Under the pieces are notes generated by a model that saw only the letters and a list, made by a program, of their open reading frames with translations, was not told the origin of the DNA and ran no database searches. Of a DNA stretch of 35,320 nt, positions 1 to 18,000 are shown piece after piece. The DNA comes from a virus (taxonomy: Duplodnaviria > Heunggongvirae > Uroviricota > Caudoviricetes): the IMG/VR virus record IMGVR_UViG_2606217174_000009. One strand, 5' to 3'. A program made the translations under genes and the position numbers. Position 1 is the stretch's first letter. The number at the start of each line of letters is the position of its first letter.

Positions 1-1287
1 TCATCGTCTCGCTCTGTGGGGCATGTATGGGACACTTTCAGTTAACTCCTTATTGAGCAGTTCTATCTGCCCGATATTGTTATCTTTCATCCATGCTCCG
101 TAAACATTGAAAACCATTTGGGCGTTTGCATGTCCCATCTGGTTTGCGATAAAGCTTGGATTAGCTCCCGCCGATAATGCCCAGCAGGCATAAGTATGCC
201 TGGACTGATAGGCTTTCCTGTGCCGTAGTCCCGCCCGTCTCAATGCCGATGCCCATGAGTCTCTGATGGAGTCTGCTTTGTAGTGGTGGCCTGCCTGCTG
301 GCATTTTTTTACCAGTTGCGGATTAAAAACAAATGTGCATTCATGTCTTACGGTGCGTCCGAACTCACGAAGTTTGACGTCAATTTGATATTGAGTACCA
401 AATCTTGTCATTTCAGCCTGACTTTTCAGGGTATCAACGGCTGGTTGAACAAGATGAATAACACGATCTGTTCCCGCTTCGGTTTTTGGTAGAGTGAACT
501 CACCGAGTTTTGTATAATTACGACGGATAGTCATTGTTTTAGCTTTTAAATCAATATCCTCCCAGGCAAGAGATATCAGCTCACCATGACGAATGCCTGT
601 GTATACTGCTAAAGACCACAGGTTTTTTGTTTGTTGATGGTGGCAAGCATCAATAAAACGAATGAATTCGTCATGTGTGAGCGGATCTGGTTCTGTTCTT
701 GATCTTTTTAATGGTGTAAGACCGTTAAACGGGTTTGATTCTGTGTATCCGTTGTCAGCTGCAAATTGAAACATACCTGCAATTGTCGTCATGTAGTAAT
801 TAACTGTAACTACAGATCGCCCTTTGACAGGAGTTGTCTTGCCGTTCGAGAGATTGTGATACCCGGTCAATAAATCTTTCCTGATAAAGAGTAAATCTTC
901 TTTTGTTACAGATGAAGCCAGTCGATTTTCCCCTATACGAGGGAGCATGTTTCTCACCACAGATTGATACCGATTGAGCGCGTTACCACCTATCTCGATT
1001 TTCTTCAGATCCAGCCATTTTTCGGCAAGTGCCTTAATGGTTATCTCCCTTTTCCCCAGACCGAAGTGTTTCAGATTTGGAGACTCAGGGAACTGCGCAG
1101 CGTAGTCGAAATTCCCCATTCTGATTGCAAAACAAACTGAAGTCCTGAGTTCGCCTGCAATCTTCCGGTTTTTGGCTGTGTCAGGAATACGGAGGTTTTC
1201 TCTGACACGTTTGCCGTTATAGTGAAACCATATGCGGAGTGAGCCGCCATGGTTTTCAACGCCTGTTGGGTATGATGTGTTACTCAT
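1..1287 (-). CDS. int: Phage tyrosine integrase (site-specific recombinase)
   Basis: 428-aa ORF; C-terminal region has tyrosine-recombinase pattern (SRHTYACWALSAG ... GHANAQMVFNVYGAWM); stop codon occupies window positions 1-3, so the attachment site lies outside the window. Confidence 0.9.
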   Translation of the reverse strand: MSNTSYPTGVENHGGSLRIWFHYNGKRVRENLRIPDTAKNRKIAGELRTSVCFAIRMGNFDYAAQFPESPNLKHFGLGKREITIKALAEKWLDLKKIEIGGNALNRYQSVVRNMLPRIGENRLASSVTKEDLLFIRKDLLTGYHNLSNGKTTPVKGRSVVTVNYYMTTIAGMFQFAADNGYTESNPFNGLTPLKRSRTEPDPLTHDEFIRFIDACHHQQTKNLWSLAVYTGIRHGELISLAWEDIDLKAKTMTIRRNYTKLGEFTLPKTEAGTDRVIHLVQPAVDTLKSQAEMTRFGTQYQIDVKLREFGRTVRHECTFVFNPQLVKKCQQAGHHYKADSIRDSWASALRRAGLRHRKAYQSRHTYACWALSAGANPSFIANQMGHANAQMVFNVYGAWMKDNNIGQIELLNKELTESVPYMPHRARR

Positions 1288-4538: not shown

Positions 4539-5138
4539 TATCGCGTCCTCAACAATGAATTTTGTGATGCGGTGCCTGGTGCCTCCAGGTGACGTTAACC
4601 AGTTAACAATTAACGCCGGATACAGAGAATCCACCCATAACACTGTTTTTGGTTTTAACTGTTCCGCGTGCGCTCAGCCGCATTCACCACATCACAAAAT
4701 TCACTTTAAAAAGGGCGGCAGAGCAGTCACGGAGTAAAACTGATACCGCCAAACGTCACCAGAAAATTGATAACAGAGGGCGTTACAGCGGGGTTGTCAC
4801 TTAAGCGTATGGTCAACCTGACAACCCGGTGTCCTCAACGGGGGAAGGAATACCCCCGCCATACTTACCGCCGCGCCATTTCGCGGATTGCCACAACCGG
4901 AAGCGCACGGTCGACGAAAATTTAACGACAGGCTATCTATGAACCAGCTACCTCGCCGTGCGCTTTCGCGTTATGGTCTGACTTTTCAGGGAAATATCCT
5001 TTCAGTAAACTGTCAATGCCGGATGCTCACCCGTGTCCGGCGCACGCACTCCACCTCACCCGTGGAGAACTCCTTAATTACTAACCTTAGCTTTGTTGAT
5101 TAGCTACTAACGCGGGTATGTAATCATTCTGGCAATGC

Positions 5139-7315: not shown

Positions 7316-7386
7316 GTGATAATAGCCATATCGAATCGCTTCCGGCAACTCGTGAGTAAAAAGATTCGGTATCAGAAGAGGTGAGT

Positions 7387-8457
7387 ATGGCTAACGCCTG
7401 GCTCAGATTATGGCATGACATGCCAAATGACCCTAAGTGGCGAACAATTGCCAGGGTGTCAGGGCAGCCAATTGCAACAGTGATGGCAGTGTATATCCAC
7501 CTCCTGGTGAGCGCGTCACGAAATGTCACGCGAGGTCACATTGATGTCACGACAGAAGATTTGGCAAGTGCGCTCGACGTGACAGAAGAGGTAATTGATT
7601 CAATTTTGCAGACGATGCAGGGGCGGGGACTTGATGGTGATTTAATCACTGGATGGGAAAAACGCCAGGTGCTGAAAGAGGACAACGGCAATATTTCGCA
7701 AACCGCAAAATCTCCTGCAGAGCGCAAGAGGGCGCAGCGAGAGAGGGAAAGAAAGCGGGAACAAAATGGCGATTGTCACGGCGCGTCACGAAATGTCACG
7801 CACATGTCACGACGAGTCACGACAGATAAAGATACAGATAAAGATACAGATCAAGAAGATCAAAACACTATGGTCCATGGCGTAAAAAACGCCACGAACC
7901 AGGCAGGGGATGTTCAGACCGTCAATCCTGGTCAGCCAGCAGGCACGACACCGGAAGCCGATTCAGCGTATGCGCTGAAAGCCGATTCGGGCGCTGTGCA
8001 GCAGGTGATGACCGCAAGGCCGGAGCAATCACACCAACTGCGGCATCCCGAAGCCGATTCCGCCATTCAGCGGGAAGCCGATCGGGTAGTCCCGGAAAAC
8101 ACCGGGCAGTCTGTGGGACGAGTGGATTATCCGGATGTGTTCGAACAGATCTGGCGGGAGTACCCGTTGCGTGCCGGGGCAAACCCGAAGAAATCCGCTT
8201 TCAGTGCCTGGAAGGCCAGATTACGCGAGGGGGTGCCACCAGAGGCCATGCTGGATGGCGTGAGGCGTTACGCAAGATACCTAGCGGTTACCGGGAAAAC
8301 GGGAACGGAATTTGTTCAGCGAGCGACGACGTTTTTTGGACCGGACCGGAATTTTGAAAACCCCTGGTTGCTCCCGGTAAACGGCACGAACAACCAGCGT
8401 TGTGTGAATCATATTTCTGAACCGGATACCGAAATTCCGCCGGGCTTCAGGGGGTAA
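7387..8457 (+). CDS. Putative replication initiator / replisome organiser carrying internal iterons
   Basis: ATG at 7387 with GAGGTGA SD (ORF-track start 7381 is GTG); lambdoid O-gene position; contains two iteron clusters; highly charged low-complexity middle. Confidence 0.55.
   Translation: MANAWLRLWHDMPNDPKWRTIARVSGQPIATVMAVYIHLLVSASRNVTRGHIDVTTEDLASALDVTEEVIDSILQTMQGRGLDGDLITGWEKRQVLKEDNGNISQTAKSPAERKRAQRERERKREQNGDCHGASRNVTHMSRRVTTDKDTDKDTDQEDQNTMVHGVKNATNQAGDVQTVNPGQPAGTTPEADSAYALKADSGAVQQVMTARPEQSHQLRHPEADSAIQREADRVVPENTGQSVGRVDYPDVFEQIWREYPLRAGANPKKSAFSAWKARLREGVPPEAMLDGVRRYARYLAVTGKTGTEFVQRATTFFGPDRNFENPWLLPVNGTNNQRCVNHISEPDTEIPPGFRG
7511..7551. repeat. Iteron cluster 1: four GTCACG/GTCACA repeats at about 10-bp spacing
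   Basis: Hexamers at 7515, 7525, 7535, 7546; the 21-bp string GCGCGTCACGAAATGTCACGC recurs at 7781-7801. Confidence 0.55.
7771..7853. repeat. Iteron cluster 2: five GTCACG repeats at 10-11-bp spacing, followed by an AT-rich 12-bp tandem repeat
   Basis: GTCACG at 7775, 7785, 7795, 7806, 7816; then CAGATAAAGATA x2 at 7823-7846. Confidence 0.55.
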
Positions 8458-8497
8458 GTGTTTATTTCAGGTCATGAGGTAATTTTCAGGAGGACTT

Positions 8498-8920
8498 GTG
8501 GCAAAAGTATTTACACAAGAAGAGCGAGAAAAAATTAAAGGGCAGGTTGTTGAACTCGTACGCCAGAGTGGGCGTGAGACGTTACGACAACTGGAAGTCA
8601 AGACAGGTGCGACAAGATATCTGATGAGCGTTCTCGCGAGAGAGCTGGTTGCCAGCGGTGATGTATACAATTCTGGTTACGGGTTATTCCCGTCTGAACA
8701 GGCGCGTAAGGACTGGCAAAATGCCCGTAAAAAGCTCTCAAGGGCAAAGCTGAAGAAACCATCTGCGGTTGATCCGGACCTTATCTGGTCATTACCTGAT
8801 GGAGAAATACGTCGTTACGACAGGCATCATAATATAATTTGTACTGAGTGTCGTAAAAGCGAAGTTATGCAGCGCATATTGTCGTTTTATCAGTGGAATG
8901 TTCGGTATTTATTAAAGTGA
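8498..8920 (+). CDS. Hypothetical protein (140 aa)
   Basis: GTG start preceded by AGGAGG; follows the replication gene; no recognisable domain. Confidence 0.5.
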   Translation: MAKVFTQEEREKIKGQVVELVRQSGRETLRQLEVKTGATRYLMSVLARELVASGDVYNSGYGLFPSEQARKDWQNARKKLSRAKLKKPSAVDPDLIWSLPDGEIRRYDRHHNIICTECRKSEVMQRILSFYQWNVRYLLK

Positions 8921-9216
8921 CGAAATTAAAATGCATTAGTTAAGATGTGAATTGACATTTTGTGGCACAGGATAGAGCTATCGTGGTTGTCCGCTTTGTG
9001 CCAGAAGCGGAAGTTAGAAATTATCTGCCAACCGATAAGATGGCTGCCTAAGTCGTAGCGATTCAGCACTGTTTTAGCGGCGCTCGATTGCAAAGTCGTG
9101 CTTTGCTGACTTGCGATTGTGCTCTTTACGAGCAAAGCTTTCAGGTATAGTAAGTGCTAACTGTAGTGTAAAATTATAGGGATAGATGAAGAAAACAACG
9201 AGGCTTTAGCTAATCT

Positions 9217-9238
9217 TTGCAGTTGTGTCTGCTATAAT
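9217..9238 (+). promoter_or_regulatory. Candidate extended -10 promoter (TGCTATAAT) for the KAP cassette
   Basis: TGnTATAAT at 9230-9238 in an AT-rich intergenic region about 80 bp upstream of the 9320 start. Confidence 0.4.
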
Positions 9239-9319
9239 AAGGCGAAATTTTATCTGCATGATTTTGTTTGATTAACTCCGAAAGCCAGCTCTCTCGGTGA
9301 AGATTGGGAAGGGATATCA

Positions 9320-12300
9320 ATGAGTGATGATAGCTATAAATTTCAAAAGTTAACGCCGTTCAGCGATGTTGAGCTGGGTGTATATAAAAATGCGATAGAT
9401 TTTGTTTTTGCCAATAACGATCTAAAAAATGTTGCGATATCAGGGCAATATAGCGCAGGAAAAAGTAGTCTTATCGAATCCTATAAGAAAAGTCATTCAA
9501 ATATAAAGTTTGTTCATATCTCACTTGCTCATTTCAGATCGATTGAGGAAGCTGAAACTAATGAACCAAGTAAAGATATAAATGAAACCGCGTTAGAAGG
9601 TAAAGTTCTTAACCAGTTAATTCACCAAATTAATGCTGATGATATTCCCCAGACACATTTTAAAGTAAAGAAAAAAATAAAAACTAACAACATTGTGATA
9701 AACACCATCTTTACGGTGTTATTTATCGCTATGATACTACATATCACGCTATTTAATAAGTGGGAAAAGTTTGTTTCACTTTTATCTGAAGGTAATATAA
9801 AGACACTACTTACATTATCAACTAAATACGATACGCTTTTAATTAGTGGGTTTATATGTACTATCCTATCTTGTATTTTCATTTACAAGTTAATAAAAAC
9901 TCAAAAGAATCGTAATGTTCTTAAGAAAATAAATTTACAGGGTAATGAAATAGAGATTTTTGAAGAAAGTAACGAGTCTTATTTCGATAGATATTTAAAT
10001 GAAGTATTGTACCTTTTCGAGAACGTTGATGCTGATGCCATTGTTTTTGAAGACATGGACCGTTTTAATAGTAATAACATCTTTGAACGTCTTCATGAGG
10101 TTAACAGACTGGTTAATATTCAACGGGACACAGCAGGGCACAAGAAATCGACGTTACGTTTTATTTACTTGCTTCGTGATGATATCTTCATTTCGAAGGA
10201 TAGAACCAAATTCTTTGATTATATCATTCCAGTTATTCCTGTTGTTGATAGTTCTAACTCTTACGATCAGTTTATCACACATTTTGATGGTGGTGGTATT
10301 CTCAAGTTGTTCAATGAAAGATTTCTACAAGGGATGTCTTTATATATTGATGATATGAGAATATTGAAGAATATTTATAACGAATTTCAAATTTATTATA
10401 ACAAATTAAACACGACAGAACTTGACTGTAATAAAATGTTGGCCATTATTGCCTATAAGAATATTTTCCCAAGAGATTTTAGTGAGTTGCAACTTAATCA
10501 AGGTATGGTTTATACCATATTTAGTGAAAAAGACAACCTTATTATTGAAGAAATAAAGAAAATAGAAAAAGATATTAGAGATAGAAAAAAAGAGATTGAG
10601 GCAATCAATGATGAAATACTCAACTCTAGTCAGGAGGTTGATGCTATATACGATAAGGAATTATCTAGATATAATAATCATCCTCACTATAATCAGGCTG
10701 AGAAAGCTGATATAGCAAAGAGAAGGGCGGCTAGAAAAGAAAGTGTTGAAAATAAATTTAATGGTAAAATAGAAGAAATTAATGAGCTTATATCAAGATC
10801 AAGAGAAAGTTTGGTTGATTCTAGAAACAAAAGACTTAAAGAAGTAATAACTAGAGAAAACATTGATGAAATATTTAAACTCACCTATACCAATGAAATT
10901 GGAGAGGAAAGAGACTTTAATGAAATAAAAAGCAGTGAGTATTTTGACTTGCTTAAATACCTTATTCGTGATGGTTATATTGATGAAACCTATACCGACT
11001 ATATGACCTATTTTTATGAAAATAGCCTGAGTCGAATTGATAAGATGTTTTTACGCAGCATTACCGATCAAAAAGGCAAAGAGTTCACTTATCAACTCAA
11101 GAACCCCAAACTGGTCGTTGCCCGCCTTCGAGAAGTGGATTTTGAACAGGAAGAGGCGCTTAATTTTGATTTATTAGCTTATCTGCTTCAAACGCCAGCC
11201 CAGGTAAACTTAATAAAACGTTTATTCAAACAACTAAGAAAAGATAGAAGAGTTGAGTTTATTCGTGGTTACTTTGAAACTGAGAGGGCTCAGCCTGTCT
11301 TCATTAATCGATTAAATACACAGTGGCCTGAGTTTTTTTCTTATGCGCTGACAGAGAGTGAATTTTCTGCTGATTGGGTTAAACTCTACTCTATAGGCAC
11401 GTTTTATTATTCTGCCAATGACGCCATCGAGGCCATTAATATTGATGATTGTCTGACTGATTACATCTCTGATTCGGCAGGTTATTTAGCAATATCAGAA
11501 CCGAAGGTTGACAAATTAATTAGTGGTTTTAAGTTGCTTAACGTCTCTTTTGTCAGTATTAAATTTGAAAACGCAAATAAAGTACTCTTTGATGCGGTTT
11601 ACCAGCATTCACTTTATGATATTAATTTTTCCAACCTGACCTTAATGCTGAGTAAGGTTTACACGCTTAATAGTGAAGATGATATTCGCCATAAGAACTA
11701 TACACTAGTGATGTCACAACCTGATTCTCCCTTGGCTAGTTATGTTAATAACCATATTAGGGACTATCTGGATATGGTTTTATCTAGTTGTGATGGTTCA
11801 ATCGTGGATGATGAATCCATTGTTTTATCCGTTCTTAATAATGAGGGAATATCTGATGAACAAAAAGGCCAGTATATAAACGCTTTGCAAACTTTCGTGA
11901 CATCTCTGAGTGAGGTTGAGAGCGAATCTTTATGGTCATCTTTGTTGGATAAAGATAGAGCAGTGTGCTCTGAGGAAAATATTGTCTCTTATTTTGAACA
12001 TGTTGATGGACTGGATGACTCACTTATCGAATTTATCAATAGAACTGATGTAGACCTGAATTTTCAAAATATTAATATTGATAACGAGCTTAAAGGTAAA
12101 TTATTTAAATCGATTGTTATCTGTAATGATTTATCAAATGATAAATATGAAAAATTAATTTGCTCACTAAATATTATTTGTAAAACATCCTTTAGCGCTA
12201 GTAATATCGCGAGTGATAAGTTCAAAATATTAGTGGATAAAAATATTATTCGTATGAATGTTGCGCCACTTAATTTCATACGAGATAACTATTCAGAGCA

Positions 12301-12691
12301 ACTTTCCTATTATATTCATAAGAATATCAGGGCATACGTTGAATTAATGACGATTGATAACTTTATTTTGGATGAGGCTATATCAATACTTTCTTGGAAA
12401 GTTGATGATGATTTGAAAGTTAAGCTACTCGAGTTTGTTAAAACTCCGTTGGCTATTTATAGTAAGAATTACTCTCAGGTCGTTAATGACTATATTTTAG
12501 AAAATAATTTTAAACCAGATGAACTTCTAATCTTGACGTCATCTTATAAAACTTGGGGAACCTCTACTCAGTCGCTCATCTTGAGTCGAGCAATACAGGA
12601 TATATCAGCATTGATAGCAAGTCCTAATGATGTTTCTGAACCGTTACTAAAAAAACCTGTTTGTCGCAGAGGGACTGAATATGCAGAATAA
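9320..12691 (+). CDS. KAP-family P-loop NTPase (1123 aa) with transmembrane insert
   Basis: Walker A GQYSAGKS (aa 42-49); two hydrophobic helices (about aa 124-146 and 172-192); Walker B-like IVFEDMDR (aa 241-248); long C-terminal region with a charged coiled-coil-like segment; strongly AT-rich. Confidence 0.8.
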   Translation: MSDDSYKFQKLTPFSDVELGVYKNAIDFVFANNDLKNVAISGQYSAGKSSLIESYKKSHSNIKFVHISLAHFRSIEEAETNEPSKDINETALEGKVLNQLIHQINADDIPQTHFKVKKKIKTNNIVINTIFTVLFIAMILHITLFNKWEKFVSLLSEGNIKTLLTLSTKYDTLLISGFICTILSCIFIYKLIKTQKNRNVLKKINLQGNEIEIFEESNESYFDRYLNEVLYLFENVDADAIVFEDMDRFNSNNIFERLHEVNRLVNIQRDTAGHKKSTLRFIYLLRDDIFISKDRTKFFDYIIPVIPVVDSSNSYDQFITHFDGGGILKLFNERFLQGMSLYIDDMRILKNIYNEFQIYYNKLNTTELDCNKMLAIIAYKNIFPRDFSELQLNQGMVYTIFSEKDNLIIEEIKKIEKDIRDRKKEIEAINDEILNSSQEVDAIYDKELSRYNNHPHYNQAEKADIAKRRAARKESVENKFNGKIEEINELISRSRESLVDSRNKRLKEVITRENIDEIFKLTYTNEIGEERDFNEIKSSEYFDLLKYLIRDGYIDETYTDYMTYFYENSLSRIDKMFLRSITDQKGKEFTYQLKNPKLVVARLREVDFEQEEALNFDLLAYLLQTPAQVNLIKRLFKQLRKDRRVEFIRGYFETERAQPVFINRLNTQWPEFFSYALTESEFSADWVKLYSIGTFYYSANDAIEAINIDDCLTDYISDSAGYLAISEPKVDKLISGFKLLNVSFVSIKFENANKVLFDAVYQHSLYDINFSNLTLMLSKVYTLNSEDDIRHKNYTLVMSQPDSPLASYVNNHIRDYLDMVLSSCDGSIVDDESIVLSVLNNEGISDEQKGQYINALQTFVTSLSEVESESLWSSLLDKDRAVCSEENIVSYFEHVDGLDDSLIEFINRTDVDLNFQNINIDNELKGKLFKSIVICNDLSNDKYEKLICSLNIICKTSFSASNIASDKFKILVDKNIIRMNVAPLNFIRDNYSEQLSYYIHKNIRAYVELMTIDNFILDEAISILSWKVDDDLKVKLLEFVKTPLAIYSKNYSQVVNDYILENNFKPDELLILTSSYKTWGTSTQSLILSRAIQDISALIASPNDVSEPLLKKPVCRRGTEYAE

Positions 12692-12953
12692 AATAGCACT
12701 GCTAATCGCTTTGTTGCCGGGTAAGGATTTGAGTAAGACGACTTGCAAAGAGTATCTTGATCTGCTTGGTTTATCGGAGTTCAGTAAAATTTTGGGGCGA
12801 GGCAAACCTAAAATTGAAGTTGATTCAACTAATCAAAGTTTATTAACAGCATTAAGAGATAACCACTTCTTCTCTGATTTTGAGGTGGATAATGAAAATC
12901 CCACTTATTATAAAATAACAAGGCGGCGCTCTATGTTTGGCTCAGATACATAG
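12681..12953 (+). CDS. Small partner protein (90 aa) overlapping the KAP NTPase stop
   Basis: ATG at 12681 overlaps the KAP stop by 11 nt (translational coupling); same AT-rich composition; no recognisable domain. Confidence 0.55.
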   Translation: MQNKIALLIALLPGKDLSKTTCKEYLDLLGLSEFSKILGRGKPKIEVDSTNQSLLTALRDNHFFSDFEVDNENPTYYKITRRRSMFGSDT

Positions 12954-12976
12954 CATTATGTATTTTTCTACAGTTT

Positions 12977-13003
12977 GGGCACTTTTATAGTGCCCAATTT
13001 TTA
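12977..13003 (+). terminator. Rho-independent terminator after the KAP cassette
   Basis: GGGCACT-TTTAT-AGTGCCC hairpin followed by AATTTTTA. Confidence 0.6.
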
Positions 13004-13601
13004 CGCTGAAACTTACGCAGATAATCTGACTTTTTCCCAGTTGACGAGTACACCTAGGTGTTCGTGAAGCCCTCAGTGTGTTGGGACAGATGCGAGCGTC
13101 CGCTCTTCGCTCAAAGCGGCCTAGAAGGTTAGCTTGCGTCGGACTTGGCGTATTTAAAGAAGTGCTGGTGGTGACTGGTTGTTGTGTTCCATTTCTACAG
13201 AACAAAATCACAGAAACTATACCCAATAGTTGTATTGAATCACTGACGAGACAGCCTCATATTTATCAGGACTGGTGTACGTCCAATACAGGAGGTTGTG
13301 GTGCTGGTTCTCAAATGTGCGCTGGCTATTGCTGCTGTAATGGCAATTTATTGCCTTGCTGTTGTTCTTATGGATCGCCTTTCTGACTGATTTCATATTG
13401 GCGAGGTGACGGGAGTTAAGTAGAATGGCTGCGGGTGCTTGAGGCTATCTGTCTCAGGCATGAACACCAACGGCAGATAGAGAAAAGCCCCAGTTAACAT
13501 TACGCGTCCTGCAAGACGCTTAACATTAATCTGAGGCTCAATCTATGAACGGCAAATCTAGGTTAGCCTCTTACGTGCCGAAAGGCAAGGAGAAGCAGGC
13601 T

Positions 13602-13757
13602 ATGAAGCAGCAAAAGGCGATGTTAATCGCCCTGATCGTCATCTGTTTAACCGTCATAGTGACGGCACTGGTAACGAGGAAAGACCTCTGCGAGGTACGA
13701 ATCCGAACCGGCCAGACGGAGGTCGCTGTCTTCACAGTCTACGAACCTGAGGAGTAA
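13602..13757 (+). CDS. hok: Hok/Gef-family type I toxin
   Basis: 51 aa MKQQKAMLIALIVICLTVIVTALVTRKDLCEVRIRTGQTEVAVFTVYEPEE matches the Hok/Gef family; AAGGAG SD; in-frame upstream ATG at 13545 gives a 70-aa mok-like extension. Confidence 0.85.
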   Translation: MKQQKAMLIALIVICLTVIVTALVTRKDLCEVRIRTGQTEVAVFTVYEPEE

Positions 13758-13825
13758 GAGACCAGGCGGGGGAGAAATCTCCAGCCACCTCTGATGTGTC
13801 AGGCATCCTCAACGCACCCGCACTT

Positions 13826-13846
13826 AACCCGCTTCGGCGGGTTTTT
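13826..13846 (+). terminator. Rho-independent terminator after hok
   Basis: CCCGC-TTCG-GCGGG hairpin plus T-run. Confidence 0.6.
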
Positions 13847-13922
13847 GCATTAGTCTGGTTGACAAAAACAGGAAAATGCGAAAATATAAGGTTTACGAAT
13901 TCTAAAAAAAGCGAAACTTGAA

Positions 13923-14573
13923 ATGAATGAAAATCAGTTAGCTCCTTGTTGGGAATTTCAACCTTATCTTGCTGAAAGCAATGTTCGCCAGTTGTTGGCG
14001 GAGATCGCTAACGTACTTGAGCAGTTGTACTATCATAAGCACGTATTAGACAGCAACTGGTCTGAAGGTGTAAGGGCTTATGATTGGGTCAGAAACCATC
14101 TTATTCAAAATGAAGGCGCAATTCCTGGTCTTAAGATGATTTCCAAGGGGTTGGACTATGTAGTTGCTTTAAATAAAGTTCCGCTACAATTTACCAAAGA
14201 TTGCATTAATAACCCCAAAAAGAAACATCGCCTGCGTCGAAATAAAGTAGAGCATGAGCAGCTTTCATTGTTTGGTGATGTTGAGGCTGAGCAAGATATT
14301 ACATGGCGAGTCATAGCGGAGCCATTTTTATCCGAAGAGGGAGATGGTGAATTAGAGTCCACACTGCCTCGTTGGGAGGTGGCTCTTGTTGGGTTTAATA
14401 TCTATGGTGCTCAGATTAGTATGGTTTCTCATCAATCTACAGCATCAATGCCACTTATGCCCCTTGACGGTAACACACTCCCTGGCGAAGCGGAGATTAA
14501 TAAGGTGTCTCTTCGTCGGCGTACGAAGGATAAAATTTTGGATGTGAGCAGTAATGGAACATCAGGTGAATAA
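13923..14573 (+). CDS. Hypothetical protein (216 aa) coupled to the downstream XRE/ImmA gene
   Basis: AT-rich ORF; 3' end overlaps the downstream gene by 20 nt; TTGACA at 13859-13864 with an AT-rich -10-like hexamer about 18 bp downstream; no recognisable domain. Confidence 0.6.
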   Translation: MNENQLAPCWEFQPYLAESNVRQLLAEIANVLEQLYYHKHVLDSNWSEGVRAYDWVRNHLIQNEGAIPGLKMISKGLDYVVALNKVPLQFTKDCINNPKKKHRLRRNKVEHEQLSLFGDVEAEQDITWRVIAEPFLSEEGDGELESTLPRWEVALVGFNIYGAQISMVSHQSTASMPLMPLDGNTLPGEAEINKVSLRRRTKDKILDVSSNGTSGE

Positions 14574-15657
14574 CTTCACTGAGTATCGAGGCGATAAGCT
14601 CAAACTAGCAAGAATGGCTGTTGGGCTTTCATGTGAAGAGTTGGCCGAAAAAATTGGCAAAACAAAACAATTCGTTAGCAAATTGGAGAAGGGATTTAGG
14701 CCATCAGAGCAATGCCTGGAGTTAATAGCCTCAGCTCTTATGATTAAGCCCGATTTTCTATTTACTGAGCGAAAATATGCTCTGGAAAGCGATGTTTGCC
14801 ATTTTCGGAGTAAGAAGTCCAGGACTCAAACGCTGACTAATAGTGTCTTGGCCAGGGCTGAGATTCTTAATATTATAATTTCTGCTGTTGAAGGTGAAAT
14901 CGAATTCCCTGATGTCAACATACCAGAGCACCCAGGAACTGAATTACTTACCCCGAATGATATTGAGCGAGTGGCAGAAGATTGTCGCCGTGCATGGAAT
15001 CTAGGTCTTGGCCCTATATCATCAATGGTGAAATTGGCGGAGAGTTTGGGGGTAATCGTTGCGCATGTTACGGGAGTCGATGATCGTGTTGATGCATTCA
15101 CTGTTCACAATAACAGGCCTGTTATTATCAGGAACAATGTAAAAAAAAGCATATGTAGATTTCGCTCTGATTTAGGTCATGAGTTAGGGCATTTAGTAAT
15201 GCATGAGGGCATAACTACTGGTGATAAACTTACGGAATCACAAGCTGATCACTTTTCTAGCGCCTTATTGGTTCCTAGGCTATCTTTCATTAAAGAATTT
15301 CCACGAATACGAGGTAAGCAATTCGATTGGAGTGCTCTGGTTGAATTTAAGCTTAGATGGAAAATTAGCCTTAAAATGTGTATTTATCGAGCCAGTGCAT
15401 TAGGACTATTGACCCAGGAACAGGCAAGAACTGGCTATATGCATCTTAATTCTAGAGGGTACACGAGAGTTGAACCAGGTGATGAACTTTTGCGCCACGA
15501 AGAACCAAGTATGCTGTCCGAAGCGATTGACATGCTGGATGATGCAACTTGGTTAAGAATTCTTATGAAAACTGGCTTGAGTCAAGATTTAATTCGTGAG
15601 TTGTTCTCCATCAATCGACCTATTACAAATCCAAGAAATATTTTTCAGATTGTTTGA
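14554..15657 (+). CDS. Fused HTH-XRE / ImmA-IrrE family zinc metallopeptidase
   Basis: N-terminal HTH (LSCEELAEKIGKTKQFVSKLEKG); central HEXXH motif (HELGHLVMHE) typical of ImmA/IrrE (COG2856) peptidases. Confidence 0.8.
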   Translation: MEHQVNNFTEYRGDKLKLARMAVGLSCEELAEKIGKTKQFVSKLEKGFRPSEQCLELIASALMIKPDFLFTERKYALESDVCHFRSKKSRTQTLTNSVLARAEILNIIISAVEGEIEFPDVNIPEHPGTELLTPNDIERVAEDCRRAWNLGLGPISSMVKLAESLGVIVAHVTGVDDRVDAFTVHNNRPVIIRNNVKKSICRFRSDLGHELGHLVMHEGITTGDKLTESQADHFSSALLVPRLSFIKEFPRIRGKQFDWSALVEFKLRWKISLKMCIYRASALGLLTQEQARTGYMHLNSRGYTRVEPGDELLRHEEPSMLSEAIDMLDDATWLRILMKTGLSQDLIRELFSINRPITNPRNIFQIV

Positions 15658-17101: not shown

Positions 17102-17461
17102 ATGCTCATAGATTTGGTTTTACCTTACCCGCCGACGGTGAACACTTACTGGCGACGCCGTGGCAGCACATATTTTATCTCGGAGGAGGGAAAGCGTTAT
17201 CGCCGGGCTGTGGCGCTTATTGTTCGCCAGCAGCGGCTGAAATTAAGCCTGTCCGGAAGGCTGGTGATAAAGGTGATTGCAGAGCCACCGGATAAGCGTC
17301 GTCGCGACCTGGACAACATTCTGAAAGCACCGCTGGATGCGCTGACGCATGCGGGAGTGCTCATTGATGACGAGCAGTTTGATGAAATCAATATTGTACG
17401 TGGTCAGCCAGTATCTGGTGGACGGCTGGGTGTGAAGATTTACAAAATTGAGAGTGAGTGA
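17102..17461 (+). CDS. rusA: RusA Holliday junction resolvase
   Basis: 119 aa; LPYPPTVNTYWRRRG and DKRRRDLDNILKAPLDALTHAGVLIDDEQ match the RusA family; typical nin-region position. Confidence 0.9.
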   Translation: MLIDLVLPYPPTVNTYWRRRGSTYFISEEGKRYRRAVALIVRQQRLKLSLSGRLVIKVIAEPPDKRRRDLDNILKAPLDALTHAGVLIDDEQFDEINIVRGQPVSGGRLGVKIYKIESE

Positions 17462-17469
17462 GCGTAAAT

Positions 17470-18000
17470 ATGATATATCCGGAAATTACAGGCAAAAGCG
17501 GCGAACATTTACGCCTGAACACGCTGGAAGCAGTCTGGATCCAGGGGAAATTACGGATGTGGGGGCGGTGGTCGTATATCGGTGGGGGTAAATCCGGAAA
17601 TATGTTTAACCGGTTACTGGTTTCGAAAAAGCTGACGAAAACAGCAGTTAATGAGGTTTTGCGCAGAATGAAGAAATCCGGGCTGGAAAAACCGGAACTT
17701 GAGGCATTTTTTCGGGATATGACAAGAGGAAAGCAGAAGAGCTGGTTGTCACATTGTACAGACACAGAGGCGTTGATTATTGATCGCGTTATCAGTAAGG
17801 TGCTTGGGGAATATCCCGGGCTAATCAATATTCTCCGGCAAAGGTACGAAGGACGGGGAATGAGTAAGAGAAAAATGGCAGAATGTTTAAATCGTACTCA
17901 CCCGGAATGGTGTTTCAGCACATGTGAGAAACGTATTGCAGGTTGGTTAGCCGTGGCTGAACACATGCTTTATGTACCTATGCACGATTCATTTCGATAA
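17470..18000 (+). CDS. Late-gene antitermination protein Q-like
   Basis: ATG at 17470 (ORF-track start 17458 is GTG inside the rusA stop); WG-W motif (LRMWGRWSY); located between rusA and a tR'-like terminator. Confidence 0.6.
   Translation: MIYPEITGKSGEHLRLNTLEAVWIQGKLRMWGRWSYIGGGKSGNMFNRLLVSKKLTKTAVNEVLRRMKKSGLEKPELEAFFRDMTRGKQKSWLSHCTDTEALIIDRVISKVLGEYPGLINILRQRYEGRGMSKRKMAECLNRTHPEWCFSTCEKRIAGWLAVAEHMLYVPMHDSFR

Follow-up and report, generated by a model that had tools for sequence, protein, structure and literature searches.

The viral DNA of 35,320 nucleotides (nt) recorded as IMGVR_UViG_2606217174_000009 (Caudoviricetes; this whole stretch is called the window hereafter) carries on its plus strand an open reading frame (ORF) of 1123 amino acids (aa) at 9320..12691 and, overlapping its stop by 11 nt, an ORF of 90 aa at 12681..12953. 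A reading of this DNA from its letters alone (the sequence-only reading) had taken the pair for a candidate uncharacterised two-gene defence system, that is, a KAP-family membrane P-loop nucleoside triphosphatase (NTPase) and a translationally coupled small partner. Comparison with relatives leads to a different view: instead of a new two-gene system, the window holds a frameshifted gene that adds a new member to a known defence family. The intact protein has 1210 residues and belongs, with high confidence, to the Tmn/YobI family of transmembrane P-loop NTPases, in which it is divergent. The annotation of "NTPase plus small partner" is thereby corrected to one frameshifted gene, whose artefactual 90-aa ORF has been deposited as a protein in several assemblies. 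In addition, a widespread YobI subfamily of low guanine + cytosine (G + C) content is now placed next to Tmn, whose mechanism was just resolved.

The 90-aa ORF appears separate because one extra A shifts the frame of a single gene. This base lies in an A7 homopolymer at 12649..12655 (plus strand), and in a base-by-base alignment with one Escherichia coli relative the sole difference in the relevant stretch is A7 in the window versus A6. A region of about 4 kb was found in 32 of 5426 complete E. coli genomes at 99.9% identity; none of the 32 has the extra base, the aligned span being one base shorter (two in one record). In the two complete-genome records inspected for annotation, a single coding sequence (CDS) of 3633 nt gives a 1210-aa protein ending in the sequence of the 90-aa ORF. 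The intact protein is found in RefSeq as WP_001278661.1 ("YobI family P-loop NTPase", 1210 aa), the last 90 residues of which are exactly the 90-aa ORF; a literature search for the accession WP_001278661 returned nothing. The large ORF of the window is identical to this protein over residues 1-1111 and diverges only past the A-run, where the frame shifts at residue 1112 and 12 out-of-frame residues follow. The 90-aa ORF corresponds to residues 1121-1210, and the frameshift converts the last 99 residues of the intact protein into the region of a separate ORF.

The relatives agree with this. Among 120 close relatives in the databases, which come from Escherichia, Shigella, Klebsiella, Serratia, Yersinia, Pectobacterium, Enterobacter and Morganella, nearly all have a length of 1207-1210 aa, a few being shorter or partial, and all 68 homologues at 36-52% identity (from Fusobacterium, Cetobacterium, Ruminococcus and metagenomes) run on for 91-103 residues beyond the position equivalent to the frameshift. 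Since the close relatives and these 68 distant homologues are single proteins, the single-protein state is, by this comparison, the ancestral one. The 90-aa ORF alone gave no family match in scans of Pfam, PADLOC, NCBIfam and PHROGs, and its sequence is contiguous with the large protein in the 32 complete E. coli genomes and the 68 distant homologues. It is the frameshifted C-terminus of the same protein and not an independent gene, so that neither the coupled partner gene nor the two-gene architecture of the sequence-only reading was borne out; the frameshift can be recognised only with comparative data and not from the window sequence alone. Two further explanations were rejected: programmed frameshifting, because every relative reads straight through with one A fewer, and the 1210-aa form as a derived fusion, because in every distant homologue one protein holds both parts.

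The frameshift is probably genuine and private to a small lineage. It is unlikely that sequencing or assembly introduced the extra A by mistake and that the strain carries an intact, functional 1210-aa gene. A length change of a single base in a homopolymer is indeed the classic error type, A7 occurs in none of the 32 complete genomes, and there are zero substitutions over the 1111 residues upstream. However, the exact 1123-aa product is found under three GenBank accessions from E. coli assemblies (KDT81612.1, KDU42574.1 and KDU47550.1), in a Logan assembly made independently from run SRR1186646 and on an IMG/VR contig, although the independence of the A7 records is not proven because the samples may be clonally related and may share a sequencing platform. 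The contig JNMI01000006.1 of assembly GCA_000700265.1 shows 100% identity to window positions 8001-14500.

Equally doubtful is that the split allele works, the 1123-aa body and the 90-aa tail both being made by termination-reinitiation at ATGCAGAATAA and then reassembling. In the AlphaFold2 model described below, the frameshift is located at model residue 1081 and the 90-aa ORF begins at model residue 1090, exactly at a helix start, and the break falls between two helices of the model; moreover, a Shine-Dalgarno-like GAGGG stands about 7 nt before the ATG. The arrangement is, however, private to one small lineage, nine junction residues are lost and 12 foreign residues gained, and other copies of the gene are broken in unrelated ways, which is the picture of decay and not of a selected split. 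In two complete genomes IS66 or IS5/IS903 has inserted within the 4-kb region, a third complete genome has another indel, and an IMG/VR viral contig (L125) shows a 464+649-aa split; the disrupted-copy records are NZ_CP010134.1 (H1), NZ_CP126348.1 (H9), NZ_CP151038.1 (H49), L125 and the window itself. Such repeated independent disruptions (IS66, IS5/IS903, two indels and the 464+649 split) therefore suggest that the gene is costly or often counter-selected. The exact 90-aa sequence has also been deposited as a stand-alone Klebsiella variicola protein, and a 90-aa member of its cluster comes from Atlantibacter hermannii, suggesting that disrupted copies elsewhere may yield the same small ORF call. 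In the predicted structure the frameshift removes the last four to five helices and a beta-hairpin, and the window allele is truncated and probably inactive.

As for the family, a Pfam scan matched PF20693 (YobI-like P-loop NTPase) to aa 22-398 (9383..10513, plus strand) over the whole model (1-363 of 363), with E = 7e-123 and 411.2 bits against a cut-off of 27. The protein thus resembles YobI of Bacillus subtilis in a full-length match to the domain model and in its RefSeq name, a likeness drawn via the Pfam model; to our knowledge, YobI of B. subtilis is functionally uncharacterised. The 1123-aa ORF was confirmed in the ORF list of the window, and the Walker A motif GQYSAGKS (aa 42-49, 9443..9466), the Walker B-like IVFEDMDR (aa 241-248, 10040..10063) and two hydrophobic helices, all on the plus strand, were located by motif and hydropathy checks where the sequence-only reading had placed them. 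When the whole protein was scanned by Kyte-Doolittle hydropathy (19-residue window, threshold 1.6), only aa 122-148 (9683..9763) and aa 170-193 (9827..9898) exceeded the threshold; both lie between Walker A and Walker B, and the AlphaFold2 model has helices in these places as well.

The claim of a KAP-family NTPase stood, therefore, with respect to a P-loop protein having two transmembrane helices between Walker A and Walker B, but not with respect to the family in the strict sense, because Pfam KAP_NTPase (PF07693) gave no match at E <= 1 and PF20693 was found instead. Tmn has been called a KAP-family NTPase (PMC11846954), and YobI/Tmn is treated as a family distinct from KAP in recent literature (PMC13001434, a 2026 preprint). 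The protein is similar to KAP NTPases (PF07693; PifA of the F plasmid; EF_KAP, PMC13552941) in being a membrane-associated P-loop NTPase that has transmembrane helices in or near the NTPase domain and in its variable C-terminal fusions, and several KAP members confer phage defence (PMC13552941), but it differs from them in lacking a PF07693 match. Among PADLOC models, that of Tmn matched the large ORF with E = 5.9e-67 over residues 9-439 and profile positions 27-474 of 1273 (about 35%), and the 90-aa ORF had no match; nothing meaningful came from scanning the two ORFs against NCBIfam and PHROGs, and the C-terminal 770 aa alone did not match the PADLOC Tmn profile. The word "uncharacterised" had consequently to be given up for a family in which Tmn was reported as a defence in 2020 (Gao et al., as cited in PMC11846954) and its mechanism in 2026 (PMC13001434).

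Tmn is a YobI-family transmembrane NTPase with two transmembrane helices inserted in the P-loop domain, and the Tmn systems (PADLOC PDLC02220) that have been characterised are Tmn-25 and its relatives on E. coli plasmids and chromosomes (PMC13001434). The comparator used here was a plasmid-borne "anti-phage transmembrane ATPase" of 1271 aa, which matches the PADLOC Tmn model end to end with 2056 bits. BLASTP of the intact protein against it gave 26% identity over aa 4-612 (E = 5e-55), whereas a profile of 116 non-redundant full-length homologues aligned to residues 19-1067 of the plasmid Tmn (406 bits, E = 1.5e-125), and therefore the homology reaches well into the distal arm. The numbering of Tmn-25 was tied to the plasmid Tmn by an offset of -2, at which 15 of 15 mutated residues fit, and was transferred by profile-guided alignment. 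The NTPase residues of Tmn-25 whose mutation abolished defence are G66, K67, Y262, D276, R279, N297, K325, F326 and R374 (PMC13001434). All nine are conserved, as G47, K48, Y231, D245, R248, N266, K297, F298 and R347, respectively, of which G47 and K48 belong to Walker A and D245 and R248 to the Walker B-like motif.

The intact protein is therefore like Tmn in its YobI-type P-loop domain, in the two transmembrane helices between Walker A and Walker B, in the nine essential NTPase residues, in a coiled-coil arm followed by an ARM/HEAT-like alpha-solenoid, in a length of about 1200 aa, in the profile homology to Tmn residues 19-1067 and in being encoded by a single gene without a conserved operon on mobile elements. 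It is unlike Tmn in its 26% identity, with BLAST detection confined to the first 612 residues and the PADLOC profile matched over the first 35% or so, in arms that are unrelated at the sequence level (the arms set trigger specificity in Tmn), in being encoded by a gene of 33% G + C that prophages or islands carry, and in the frameshift of the window copy. All the architectural and catalytic features of Tmn that were examined were found, and only a full-length match to the current detection profile was lacking.

The architecture was predicted with AlphaFold2 on a near-identical record (P0095), which represents residues 32-1210 of the intact protein, and an alignment of 74 sequences. The mean predicted local distance difference test (pLDDT) score was 82 and exceeded 90 over most of the C-terminal half. 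The model consists, in order, of an alpha/beta NTPase core with two long hydrophobic helices, a coiled coil, a small alpha/beta element, a solenoid and a terminal beta-hairpin; model residues 373-471 form long paired helices, and about 45 short helices, most of them with pLDDT above 90, continue to residue 1149. The predicted coiled coil (about aa 404-502, 10529..10825, plus strand) would be the equivalent of the proximal arm of Tmn (PMC13001434), and the all-alpha solenoid predicted for the intact protein (about aa 534-1180, 10919..12860, plus strand), which the frameshift interrupts, that of the distal arm; the last four helices of the solenoid and the beta-hairpin fall in the 90-aa ORF. A Foldseek search of the PDB gave nothing at E <= 1e-3, and its best fold matches were weak and all of ARM/HEAT type (BRAT1, HEAT subunits of condensin, importin-alpha and beta-catenin); a profile search of PDB sequences found no relative.

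That the gene serves as an anti-phage module, as had been supposed, is very probable from its homology to validated Tmn, its catalytic residues and the company it keeps. The gene occupies a slot between the end of a DUF977 gene (8920) and sok/hok (13433). In other E. coli prophages the DUF977|hokD slot holds QueH, or a 269-aa hypothetical protein together with an IS481 element. A scan of IMG/VR for the left junction found at least 120 contigs (L013-L132), and among the matches listed, to which the following counts also refer, 39 contigs had both flanks and fell into 21 size classes of 0.9-5.9 kb, most of low G + C content; the alternative cargoes number more than 20. Of 20 cargo proteins taken as representatives, nine matched PADLOC families, namely a CBASS cyclase, AbiH, PD-T7-1 (twice), PDC-S15, PDC-S33, PDC-S39, an NsnA/PD-T4-2-like protein and Hp2. 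The other 11, including proteins of 834 aa (L090) and 463 aa (L111) and a 417+379-aa pair (L051, L029), had no PADLOC match; such cargoes, about half of those sampled, are candidates for new defence genes. Judging from this gene content, the DUF977|hokD interval is a defence hotspot of lambdoid prophages. Because cargoes of the slot match defence families, the defence reading of the NTPase gene is supported, and so is the idea of a moron at a hotspot. The slot is similar to the hotspots of P2-like phages and P4-like satellites (PMC9122126) in its fixed position between conserved phage genes and its many, mostly defensive, low-G + C cargoes, but it differs from them in belonging to lambdoid prophages, in lying between DUF977 and hokD and in being bounded by a repeated 22-nt motif. 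No description of the DUF977|hokD slot was found in the literature searched.

A membrane NTPase could also serve its mobile element in some way other than defence, for example through addiction, membrane remodelling or envelope exclusion, and the sensor arms do differ from those of validated Tmn while the function of the subfamily is putative. We nevertheless regard this as very unlikely, since the protein is homologous to a validated defence protein with conserved catalytic residues, its distribution is rare and patchy (the 32 genomes mentioned above), the gene moves among prophage, satellite-like and integrase islands, and the other cargoes of the slot are largely defence genes.

The gene travels as a discrete unit. 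By DNA identity to copies elsewhere, the cassette extends over window positions 8988-13119. It shares 8988-13104 with a Klebsiella island carrying an integrase, AlpA and a methylase (96.8% identity), 8989-13112 with a Pectobacterium P4-like island carrying an integrase, AlpA and a DUF927 primase and adjoining a ParE toxin-antitoxin pair (93.7%), and 8994-13121 with an E. coli tRNA-Asn integrase island (95.5%). These three islands and the E. coli lambdoid prophage have no neighbour gene in common, so the cassette has one CDS with different neighbours in four contexts and, like Tmn, no conserved operon partner. A genuine two-gene system of a KAP-type membrane NTPase and a translationally coupled 90-aa partner retains almost no probability: the 11-nt overlap, the GAGGG upstream of the ATG and the annotation of the small ORF as a gene by gene callers in a deposited assembly speak for it, but the 90 residues are the in-frame C-terminus in 32 complete E. 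coli genomes and 68 distant homologues until one extra A splits them, they have no family match of their own, and the exact product in K. variicola may be another disrupted copy.

The suggestion of a horizontally acquired moron in a variable prophage slot was upheld by the low G + C content, the same unit in three other islands and the alternative cargoes; the large ORF has 32.7% G + C against 49.1% in the rest of the window, which also agrees with the claim that the cassette is poorer in G + C than its flanks. The gene is accompanied by a conserved non-coding leader of about 330 nt (8988..9319, plus strand), which retains 93-97% identity between genera and, in E. coli, was found nowhere without the gene; Rfam gave nothing for it even at E <= 1, and it may be a promoter, a regulatory RNA or a recombination site. 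Both cassette ends carry a 22-nt motif, GTCCGCT-N10-AGCGG, in direct orientation: on the left GTCCGCTTTGTGCCAGAAGCGG (8989..9010, plus strand), where homology to the Klebsiella and Pectobacterium cassettes begins (8988/8989), and on the right GTCCGCTCTTCGCTCAAAGCGG (13098..13119, plus strand), where homology to the other contexts stops (13104-13121). In the 35-kb window the pattern GTCCGCT-N(6-14)-AGCGG is present at these two places and nowhere else; 0.02 occurrences were expected from shuffles, and none of 100 shuffles reached two. The left motif and the 7-mer of the right motif accompany the cassette into the Klebsiella and Pectobacterium islands, and the motif also occurs at 7669-7690 of L003, at 1102-1123 and 2110-2131 of L008 and in IMG/VR loci within L013-L132. 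In the set of 39 contigs, whose right flank starts directly behind the motif position, the right-hand motif, which the search pattern did not contain, was found in 23 and both motifs in 19, three (including L042 and L016) having an extra copy inside the interval. In the lambdoid slot the motifs thus flank or separate alternative cargoes too. Instead of being linker homology, they could mark the places at which a dedicated mechanism exchanges cassettes. The right motif as a strong hairpin was rejected, as shuffled sequences fold just as well (z = -0.9), and the left one is only modestly stable as a fold.

How the intact protein may work can be proposed from Tmn-25. Tmn is complete in one gene and has no conserved operon; Tmn-25 forms a decameric membrane complex with a coiled-coil "proximal" arm and an ARM/HEAT-like solenoid "distal" arm in the cytosol, the arms bind the phage trigger, RIIB of T2, and the response consists of ATP turnover, Mg2+ export and plasmolysis (PMC13001434). 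By analogy, a mobile single-gene cassette, carried as cargo in the DUF977|hokD defence hotspot of a lambdoid prophage, would give a 1210-aa product whose ATPase domain, at the N-terminus, is fixed to the inner membrane by the two-helix hairpin between Walker A and Walker B and which would be a membrane-anchored oligomer. Its coiled-coil and solenoid arms may sense a protein of the infecting phage, and this would stimulate ATP hydrolysis, leading to ion export, plasmolysis and growth arrest, which would halt replication of the phage and so spare the lysogen population. In the strain of the window, the extra A at 12649-12655 leaves a truncated, probably inactivated gene with a spurious "partner" ORF. 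There is about an even chance that the detailed Tmn-like output applies to the intact subfamily protein. The trigger is probably different from RIIB because the arms are unrelated in sequence.

Several points weigh against this picture. The identity with validated Tmn is no higher than 26%, and the PADLOC Tmn profile is matched at positions 27-474 of 1273 only, below a coverage of 50%. Of two proximal-arm residues that Tmn-25 needs, Y541 is not conserved and F506 lies in an unaligned insert; a third, R544, is conserved. No homologue, at the level of DNA or protein, was found in 50,697 sequenced phage genomes. The defence role of the subfamily is putative and is drawn from homology with Tmn and from context; trigger, oligomeric state and ion-export output are extrapolated from Tmn-25, Walker-A-dependent protection, the decamer and trigger-induced output having been described for Tmn-25 and a few variants (PMC13001434). 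Furthermore, the inactivity of the truncated allele is presumed from the loss of its conserved C-terminal piece.

The subfamily to which the protein belongs is large. The C-terminal arm alone (residues 613-1109) found 1251 clusters at 50% identity with E <= 1e-3; the full-length matches among those listed were about 1200 aa long and had the arm at an equivalent position, the shorter ones being apparent fragments, and the range extended from Fusobacterium and Firmicutes to Enterobacterales. In eight diverse members the PADLOC Tmn profile was matched only at about positions 20-488. The ten published Tmn clades were built from PADLOC calls with at least 50% profile coverage (PMC13001434), and the subfamily is probably not included in them because its coverage falls below this filter. 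The names in RefSeq differ likewise, "anti-phage transmembrane ATPase" for the plasmid type versus "YobI family P-loop NTPase" here. This large group of YobI proteins may form a branch that differs in function, having its own phage triggers and possibly a different output. With its conserved catalytic residues and completely different sensor arms, it is a candidate for asking how arm sequence sets trigger specificity. By-products of the analysis are a YobI branch that Tmn detection covers at the N-terminus only and a motif-bounded defence slot in lambdoid prophages. The joint proposition that a distinct YobI branch has been missed by Tmn phylogenies and profiles and that the 22-nt motifs are cassette-exchange sites is tentative, and we would give it well under an even chance.

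Expression signals of its own had been claimed for the cassette, and this held better for the terminator than for the promoter. An intrinsic-terminator-like hairpin (12975-12997) with a T-run, together 12975..13003 on the plus strand, was called by a terminator scan; its 9-bp, GC-rich stem folds with -9.7 kcal/mol, z = -5.8 relative to shuffled sequence. The extended -10-like box TGCTATAAT is present at 9230..9238 (plus strand), is unchanged in the Klebsiella copy and is replaced by TGCTATAGT at the corresponding Pectobacterium site. However, no recognisable -35 was found for it and a consensus promoter scan did not list it, so that it is a putative extended -10 promoter.

The window as a whole is a mosaic lambdoid prophage. 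A related copy in E. coli (L001) is located next to rspB and has an integrase gene on that side, and the window starts with a 428-aa minus-strand ORF (1..1287) at the corresponding position. The early region encodes an S24-type repressor, a Cro-like protein and YdaT, and the DicF antisense small RNA (sRNA) is found on the minus strand at 4713-4764 (Rfam, 76.7 bits); DicF is consistent with an early region of Qin/Rac type with dicB-like genes. A replisome-organiser-like gene (7381-8457) and the DUF977 gene (8498-8920), the left neighbour of the slot, follow. Directly downstream of the cassette lies a hok/sok type I toxin-antitoxin locus (13433-13757; Rfam sok, 107 bits; Hok ORF at 13545-13757), and in L001 an IS3 element is inserted between the cassette and hok. 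Next in the order of landmarks come a gene for a DUF968 protein and the Q antiterminator (17458-18000).

Downstream of hok/sok, the ORFs 13923-14573 and 14554-15657 overlap and encode a 216-aa protein without a family match and a 367-aa protein with HTH_3 and Peptidase_M78 domains (ImmA/IrrE-like); the pair may be another accessory or regulatory module after the hotspot. Downstream of the Q antiterminator are an N6/N4 DNA methylase gene (18590-19648), three tRNA genes (19689-19935) and the sRNA STnc100 (20043-20240), a layout that is reminiscent, by gene order alone, of Stx-type lambdoid late regions. Two paralogous esterase-like proteins, each with a SASA sialate O-acetylesterase domain and DUF6645, are encoded in opposite orientations, and a Mom-family protein gene and a Baseplate_J gene lie on the minus strand between and beyond them; these features are located at 20414-22396 (plus strand) and at 27616-28548, 29861-31915 and 34238-35320 (minus strand). 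From these features, the rightmost third of the window appears to be another prophage, or what is left of one, that runs in the opposite direction and abuts the lambdoid prophage.

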